Source: Escherichia coli (GTDB lineage: Bacteria > Pseudomonadota > Gammaproteobacteria > Enterobacterales > Enterobacteriaceae). From it: a DNA stretch of 64,000 nucleotides. The notes under the pieces are model-generated. The model made no database searches, was not told the origin of the DNA, and saw nothing but the letters and a program-made list of their open reading frames with translations. Shown in pieces: positions 39,146-39,420 of this stretch; positions within the stretch are counted from its first letter, which is position 1, and each line of letters begins with the position of its first letter. A program made the position numbers and the translations under genes. The stretch lies in NCBI RefSeq assembly GCF_003018255.1, contig NZ_CP027440.1; one strand, 5' to 3'.

Positions 39146-39420
39146 CCTTGCCGAATGTAGGCCGGATAAGGCATTCACGCCGCATCCGGCAATCAACGCC
39201 GGATGCGACGCTGTCGCGTCTTATCAGGCCTACAGCCGTTGCCGAATGTAGGCCGGATAAGGCGTTTACGCCGCATCCGGCAATCAACGCCTGATGCGTC
39301 GCTGTCGCGTCTTATCAGGCCTACAGCCGTTGCCGAATGTAGGCCGGATAAGGCGTTCACGCCGCATCCGGCAACCAGCGCCTGATGCGACGCTGTCGCG
39401 TCTTATCAGGCCTACAAACC
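39146..39420. repeat. BIME array: three tandem 91-bp units of paired REP elements between acs and yjcH
   Basis: GCCGGATAAGG recurs at 39160, 39251, 39342; ORF track shows three identical phantom ORFs 91 bp apart. Confidence 0.92.

Follow-up and report, generated by a model that had tools for sequence, protein, structure and literature searches.

The 64,000-nucleotide stretch of Escherichia coli DNA analyzed here (the window) carries on its minus strand the gene row acs-yjcH-actP. The first gene, acs (39450 to 41408), matches the NCBIfam model for acetate--CoA ligase at 1119 bits. It is followed by yjcH (38754 to 39068), which encodes an inner-membrane protein with the Pfam domain DUF485 and bears that name in the matching RefSeq genomes, and by the last gene of the operon, actP (37108 to 38757), which encodes a cation/acetate symporter (1145 bits). 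Co-transcription of the three genes is stated in bioRxiv 10.64898/2026.06.26.734639 and in PMC3118216, which credit Gimenez et al. (2003) for the observation. A spacer of 381 nt separates the acs stop (39450) from the yjcH start (39068), and a repeat array sits in it, wholly outside the genes. On the acs side of the array, the minus-strand flank (39416 to 39449) contains a degenerate remnant (GCCCGATGCGAGTCGG) of a Y-type repetitive extragenic palindrome (REP), which in other Escherichia alleles lies 9 nt past the acs stop. Sequence comparison shows that the flank on the yjcH side (39069 to 39144, minus strand) is common to other genera; it holds a small hairpin, CTCCC-TTAT-GGGAG (39112 to 39125), and the yjcH Shine-Dalgarno region ACCTCTGGAGA (39075 to 39085), the reported pairing site of the sRNAs OmrA and OmrB (bioRxiv 10.64898/2026.06.26.734639). 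Further up the transcript, K-12 Term-seq data (supplement of Adams et al. 2021) include a strong 3′ end inside the acs ORF, 411 nt from its start (K-12 coordinate 4286960; approximately 40997 on the minus strand of the window). It may reflect an attenuator in acs or an RNA processed from it. Two other matches at the Rfam gathering level, one to the sRNA sraL (33323 to 33463, minus strand, 153 bits) and one to a bacterial SECIS element (52713 to 52767, minus strand, 87 bits; inside or beside a 559-aa ORF at 51032 to 52711), belong to the known features expected in this part of the chromosome.

Tandem Repeats Finder returned a single array in the spacer, at 39148 to 39428, with a period of 91, 3.1 copies, 94% matches, no indels, and a score of 497; it is one of two tandem arrays of this kind in the 64-kb window. 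Taken together with the sequence, the repeat search resolves three head-to-tail 91-bp units over 39145 to 39417 (39145 to 39235, 39236 to 39326, and 39327 to 39417), whose in-register copies are 100, 95, and 93% identical. Each unit consists of an inverted Y palindrome of 34 nt, a 7-nt linker, a forward Z2 palindrome of 36 nt, and a 14-nt linker, which sum to 91; the linkers read AATCAAC and AGCCGTTGCCGAAT, respectively. The three Y elements are on the minus strand. That of unit 1 (39157 to 39190) differs from the pattern by one mismatch, reads GCCGGATGCGGCGTGAATGCCTTATCCGGCCTAC on the minus, mRNA-sense strand, and has a predicted RNA hairpin of −19.5 kcal/mol, while those of unit 2 (39248 to 39281; hairpin of −21.3 kcal/mol) and unit 3 (39339 to 39372) match without mismatch. 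The Z2 elements, on the plus strand with 0 to 1 mismatch each, occupy 39198 to 39233 in unit 1, 39289 to 39324 in unit 2, where an A>T change weakens the inner stem, and 39380 to 39415 in unit 3. This last Z2 is the REP that the acs transcript meets first, 34 nt past the acs stop. The patterns were built from the literature consensus sequences of Y and Z2, with which dispersed copies elsewhere in the window agree. Neither pattern found a match in dinucleotide-preserving shuffles of the window, so the occurrence of Y and Z2 here is not due to chance.

These features identify the acs-yjcH element as an ordinary BIME-2 array, a composite form of the E. coli REP family. BIME-2 elements are defined by the combination of Y and Z2 with a short linker, in multiple tandem copies whose number at a given locus varies between strains (PMC3333891 and PMC1187871; classification of Gilson and Bachellier). 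The array agrees with this definition in having Y+Z2 units in alternating orientation, short linkers, conserved tandem copies, an extragenic site, membership in a dispersed family, and a strain-variable copy number. Its linkers and unit SNPs are specific to the locus, as is normal for BIME-2, and nothing essential sets it apart from BIME-2 in general. Architecture, tandem amplification, and strain copy-number polymorphism of BIME-2 have all been documented since the 1990s. The first-pass annotation, which had placed three tandem 91-bp units of paired REPs between acs and yjcH within the acs-yjcH-actP operon, was accurate in both position and structure: the three genes share the minus strand, the period is 91, and the Y and Z2 matches carry 0 to 1 mismatch.

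The family is dispersed, with BLAST matching a 1-kb query at 35 places in the median E. coli genome. Within the window, further Y/Z2 pairs occur at approximately 3885 to 4007, 8111 to 8241, and 49874 to 50247. The first two of these exceed the threshold of the Rfam naRNA4 model, at 62.7 and 79.8 bits. The third is itself a tandem BIME array with a period of 113 nt, 3.3 copies, and 97% matches, situated between convergent ORFs of 437 aa (ending at 49831, plus strand) and 229 aa (ending at 50249, minus strand). Its variant Y unit (GTCGGATG...ATCCGAC) carries a C>T change compensated by G>A, its linker is long at approximately 41 nt, and all three of its units exceed the naRNA4 threshold. A second side observation concerns position 39201, where Z2 of unit 1 carries a window-specific G; strain JNE23-011, which is 99.9% identical, and all other Z2 copies have T. 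The G disrupts one base pair of its own Z2 hairpin yet yields perfect 15-bp pairing with the adjacent Y, and the predicted long-hairpin fold of unit 1 is −54.3 kcal/mol with this G, compared with −44 to −49 kcal/mol for the other units.

We asked how the same junction looks in other E. coli strains. In K-12 MG1655 the spacer is 199 nt and holds exactly one unit, and the difference from the window (381 − 199 = 182) is exactly 2 × 91. The flanks, the insertion point, and the Y/Z2 unit are alike in the two alleles; apart from the additional 182 nt in the window, they differ by a few SNPs in the unit and the left flank. The yjcH fusion used in the OmrA/B study (bioRxiv 10.64898/2026.06.26.734639) starts at −168, which in K-12 is 2 to 3 nt upstream of the BIME unit. 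Among the loci that we retrieved were also two-unit alleles (spacers of 291 or 302 nt), other three-unit alleles (381 or 393 nt), and four-unit alleles (472 nt; strains HR5-1 and KK05-19). Other alleles carry an atypical REP pair (209 nt; EC958-like strains), an ERIC element with a single Y REP (226 nt; e.g., E. coli 23CRST032), or a single Y REP only (132 nt; the GTDB representative of E. coli). In 98 sampled chromosomes, drawn as two evenly spaced samples of a BLAST ranking over 5,426 complete genomes, the approximate shares were 67% for one unit, 2% for two, 7% for three, 3% for four, and 20% for other alleles (13% EC958 type and 7% ERIC type). The genome collection behind these figures is skewed toward clinical and laboratory lineages. 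Since BLAST merges repeated pieces, coverage cannot separate unit-number alleles across the 5,426 genomes; four-unit alleles look in the BLAST samples as if the acs side were missing, and they were resolved from retrieved locus sequences.

Unit number is thus variable among strains, in keeping with the first-pass annotation, which had proposed this comparison and held that an identical copy number everywhere would speak against a variable role: alleles with one, two, three, or four units exist, alongside others. SNP patterns of the units and left flanks differ between three-unit and four-unit alleles. Such distinct patterns and flanks among alleles of one to four units indicate repeated expansions and contractions, with expansion having occurred more than once. 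Alleles that bear half a unit or an ERIC element are common, and the BIME-2 array is thus dispensable at this site. The allele with ERIC and a Y REP may be ancestral or may have been gained by recombination.

A wider comparison covered 80 Enterobacterales species recovered with YjcH. In all 80, acs lies directly upstream of yjcH. The spacer between them ranges from 69 to 302 nt (median, 161.5 nt) and exceeds 105 nt in 70 of the 80; a minimal, REP-less spacer of 69 to 103 nt is found in the other 10, while the longer spacers hold extra, highly structured sequence. The nature of that sequence varies. In 20 species, among them Salmonella, Citrobacter, Kosakonia, and Buttiauxella, an ERIC element immediately precedes the yjcH ribosome-binding region CCTCTGGAGA, which is conserved, on its 5′ side; the position of the element is identical to that in the ERIC-type allele of E. 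coli. Hairpins of the form CCCTCTCCC...GGGAGAGGG, a stronger counterpart of the CTCCC-TTAT-GGGAG hairpin in the window, occur in 19 species, and a REP starting 6 to 15 nt past the acs stop occurs in 16 (Salmonella, Citrobacter, E. whittamii, the GTDB E. coli representative, and Kosakonia cowanii). The tandem Y/Z2 array is confined to Escherichia in this set, where E. albertii and one further Escherichia species have one unit each. The yjcH ribosome-binding region itself is near-invariant, with YTGGAG present in 78 of the 80 species.

At the RNA level, the acs-sense sequence of 39060 to 39460 has a predicted fold of −199.9 kcal/mol, compared with −142 ± 6 kcal/mol in shuffles (z = −9.5). In the mRNA sense, two folds of the array are predicted: six separate hairpins, each of −16.7 to −22.1 kcal/mol, or, with each unit folded as a whole, three long hairpins that pair Z2 with Y at −44 to −54 kcal/mol. 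These predictions bear out the earlier expectation of extensive RNA secondary structure. We aligned 17 REPs drawn from the window and from one related allele. In their stems, 97.6% of positions pair, and compensatory double changes occur at 5 of the 13 base pairs (e.g., GCCGGAT/ATCCGGC versus GCCTGAT/ATCAGGC versus GTCGGAT/ATCCGAC), while stem-pairing scores were far lower in shuffles and in slid-partner controls. The hairpin is thus a conserved property of the REP family. Immediately past each hairpin the RNA reads ACAUUCGGCAA or GUUGAUU and not a U-tract; the hairpins are therefore not intrinsic terminators, and a terminator scan of 39069 to 39449 likewise found no candidate on either strand. 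A scan of the spacer for sigma-70 or sigma-54 promoter-like sites was also empty, and we rejected an internal promoter on this basis. The array is G-rich or balanced in composition (C/G of 0.96) and includes no rut-like C-rich stretch, making it unlikely that Rho loads on the array itself.

The closest counterpart, and the model studied by experiment for a combined terminator and stabilizer role, is REP325, the naRNA1-6 array between yjdM and yjdN of K-12 (PMC4550694; bioRxiv 10.64898/2026.03.23.713779), which is likewise a tandem Y/Z2 array between co-oriented genes of an operon, and the units of the two are similar enough that both exceed the threshold of the Rfam naRNA4 model. They differ in size, with 5.8 units of 100 nt and linkers of 13 nt and approximately 20 nt in REP325 against 3 units of 91 nt in the acs-yjcH array, and in orientation, since acs mRNA reads Z2 and then Y whereas yjdMN mRNA reads Y and then Z2. 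REP325 stabilizes the upstream yjdM mRNA (more than 160-fold with versus without REP325) and gives rise to a ladder of hairpin-terminated transcripts, with an attenuation of read-through that is partly Rho dependent (bioRxiv 10.64898/2026.03.23.713779). The same study reports that 146 REP-separated tandem gene pairs have a median log2 upstream/downstream ratio of 0.96, compared with −0.09 in controls. Exonuclease-resistant 3′ ends formed by REP hairpins have been described as well (PMC6061677). The REP325 results accord with the first-pass statement that arrays of this type can alter mRNA stability or polarity. For acs-yjcH-actP itself, OmrA/B are reported to pair at the yjcH Shine-Dalgarno region and to repress yjcH-actP but not the co-transcribed acs, with log2 changes of −0.65 for yjcH, −0.94 for actP, and +0.21 for acs (bioRxiv 10.64898/2026.06.26.734639). 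A decrease in yjcH-actP that spares acs is the pattern expected if intercistronic hairpins uncouple the decay of the two parts of the message.

Considering the behavior of REP325, the genome-wide upstream bias, and the OmrA/B response together, we favor the view, at a probability of roughly 60%, that the array would act as an exonuclease barrier and leaky attenuator that favors acs over yjcH-actP and uncouples their decay. RNA polymerase running from acs into the spacer would produce an RNA that folds into the six hairpins or into three hairpins of approximately 80 nt, each pairing a Z2 with its neighboring Y. These hairpins would block 3′-to-5′ exonucleases, allowing acs-containing products of decay or termination to persist, and would also cause a partial loss of read-through into yjcH-actP, a loss that would probably be stronger with more units and part of which may depend on Rho. 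The net outcome would most likely be a modest shift of the expression ratio toward acs, with acs insulated from decay that starts in yjcH-actP, for instance upon OmrA/B pairing at the yjcH ribosome-binding site. Slippage at the 91-bp direct repeats or recombination between them, possibly aided by the REP-associated transposase TnpA-REP, would alter the unit number and leave strains with one to four units. Each unit-number allele may then set a slightly different level of expression, and the strength of a multi-unit effect may scale with unit number. That structured elements are common at this junction across genera, with a spacer longer than 105 nt in most of the species compared, is consistent with the same view.

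Intercistronic REPs at malE-malF and hisJ-hisQ reportedly guard the upstream cistron from 3′ exonucleases and lead to discoordinate expression within the operon (Newbury et al. 1987; Stern et al. 1984). Those are the classic tested cases, whereas for the acs-yjcH array the effect is one that we infer. The K-12 Term-seq tables of Adams et al. list the 3′ end inside acs described above and none in the acs-yjcH spacer, which speaks weakly against a strong effect of the single-unit allele. In one RNA-seq set (Harris et al. supplement), K-12 baseMeans were similar for acs (154) and actP (121), suggesting that a single unit is not a strong barrier under the conditions of that set. Furthermore, Harris et al. 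(bioRxiv 10.64898/2026.03.23.713779) detected no Rho dependence with fragments of 2 to 4 hairpins and report that half-lives are not uniformly longer with REPs. The lack of a C-rich stretch in the array, its reversed orientation relative to REP325, and its dispensability likewise call for caution. A separate mechanism, translational down-regulation of a gene by a REP that lies no more than 15 nt past its stop codon, is attributed to Liang, Rudd, and Deutscher (2015) in the summary given by PMC12306157. We rejected it for the window allele, in which the distance from the acs stop to the first intact REP falls outside the <16-nt range, and it could apply to the other alleles and genera in which a REP begins 6 to 15 nt past the acs stop.

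The most serious competitor to the barrier-and-attenuator reading, although we consider it distinctly less likely, is that the array is repeat DNA, neutral or selfish, which inserted at an untranslated and permissive site, was tolerated there, and was amplified by slippage, recombination, or TnpA-REP; it would have no selected role at this locus, and any effects on the mRNA would be incidental. The high variability of the site within E. coli, which may hold Y alone, one to four Y/Z2 units, an atypical pair, or ERIC with a REP, is what such an insertion would predict, as are the short and REP-less spacers of ten other species and the persistence of stem-weakening mutations (the A>T change in Z2 of unit 2 and the G at 39201). 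The lack of a spacer 3′ end in the K-12 Term-seq tables fits as well, and much intergenic polymorphism is known to stem from BIMEs (PMC3333891 and PMC1187871). However, the stems of the REP family keep pairing through compensatory changes, a structured element is found at the junction in most genera, with a REP just past the acs stop in several, and REP-separated tandem pairs are biased toward the upstream gene genome-wide. A neutral origin also leaves room for a real, unselected effect on expression.

A role at the DNA level appears improbable, and more so than neutrality. The array follows acs, a strongly inducible gene, and might recruit gyrase and thereby remove transcription-generated positive supercoils. 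BIME-2 arrays are reported to bind gyrase with high affinity, and PMC3333891, with reference to Espeli and Boccard (1997), cites them as targets of gyrase cleavage in vivo; the Y/Z2 architecture of the array matches BIME-2. Nothing in the sequence singles out such a role, however, and it could coexist with the RNA-level explanation instead of competing with it.

An adaptive extension of the barrier-and-attenuator reading is more speculative still, and we rate it slightly below the gyrase proposal. It holds that selection has maintained a structured RNA "insulator" at the acs-yjcH junction, with recurrent recruitment across Enterobacterales of Y REPs, Y/Z2 BIME-2 units, atypical BIMEs, ERIC elements, and GGGAGAGGG-type hairpins. 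Unit number, from 1 to 4, would then be a heritable rheostat of the Acs:ActP ratio that shields acs from yjcH-actP decay triggered by OmrA/B. If this were true, acetate-scavenging behavior would differ among strains without any change in coding sequence or promoter.

The remaining candidates concern annotations that the repeats might invite. We think it very improbable that the units are genes for naRNA4-like small RNAs (Rfam RF02564), that is, HU-bound transcripts that condense the nucleoid. The three units do score 67.9, 77.4, and 79.8 bits on the plus strand, above the gathering threshold of 59.5, but these matches are antisense to the operon, and the acs-sense (minus) strand reaches only 45.5 to 52.3 bits. 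The model also matches five other Y/Z2 pairs at three loci of the window and so detects generic BIME-2 units, and the nucleoid role of naRNA4 is contested (Harris et al., bioRxiv 10.64898/2026.03.23.713779). A scan of 38700 to 39800 found no promoter-like site on the plus strand. With only the antisense strand above threshold and matching that is generic to Y/Z2, naRNA4 was rejected as a specific annotation.

Similarly, we give very little credence to the Y REP as an AtoC binding site that regulates yjcH-actP. Upstream of yjcH, PMC3118216 reports CCGGATAAGGCGTTTACGCC among its ChIP-positive "motif 4" targets, and that exact 20-mer is present at 39253 to 39272. It is, however, nothing more than the Y REP core, which that study (PMC3118216) also lists, in identical or nearly identical form, at sseB and yafJ, and there are hundreds of copies per genome. 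Motif finders pick up repeats, ChIP-PCR is ambiguous on repeated DNA, and neither a sigma-54 nor a sigma-70 promoter was found in the spacer. The reported AtoC site upstream of yjcH is probably a repeat artifact. Finally, although seven ORFs of 42 to 133 aa overlap the array on both strands, the chance that any encodes a real small protein is negligible and they are best regarded as artifacts, the phantom ORFs that had been suspected from the first reading, as the five that were scanned (55 to 133 aa) have no Pfam match, RefSeq/PGAP shows no gene in the spacer of the 99.9%-identical three-unit strain, the 91-nt period is not divisible by 3, and the ORFs come and go with unit number.

For annotation, the array should be masked as BIME-2, and neither the overlapping ORFs nor the naRNA4 matches should be treated as gene annotations; likewise, the published "AtoC site" upstream of yjcH is best read as a REP core. 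Beyond correct annotation, the finding is of little consequence. The locus nevertheless offers a natural allelic series (half a unit, one, two, three, or four units, and ERIC) in a well-studied and physiologically important operon whose downstream half is an sRNA target. This series makes acs-yjcH-actP a convenient place to quantify how REP copy number tunes intra-operon ratios, a question raised but not answered by the 2026 study of REP325 (bioRxiv 10.64898/2026.03.23.713779).
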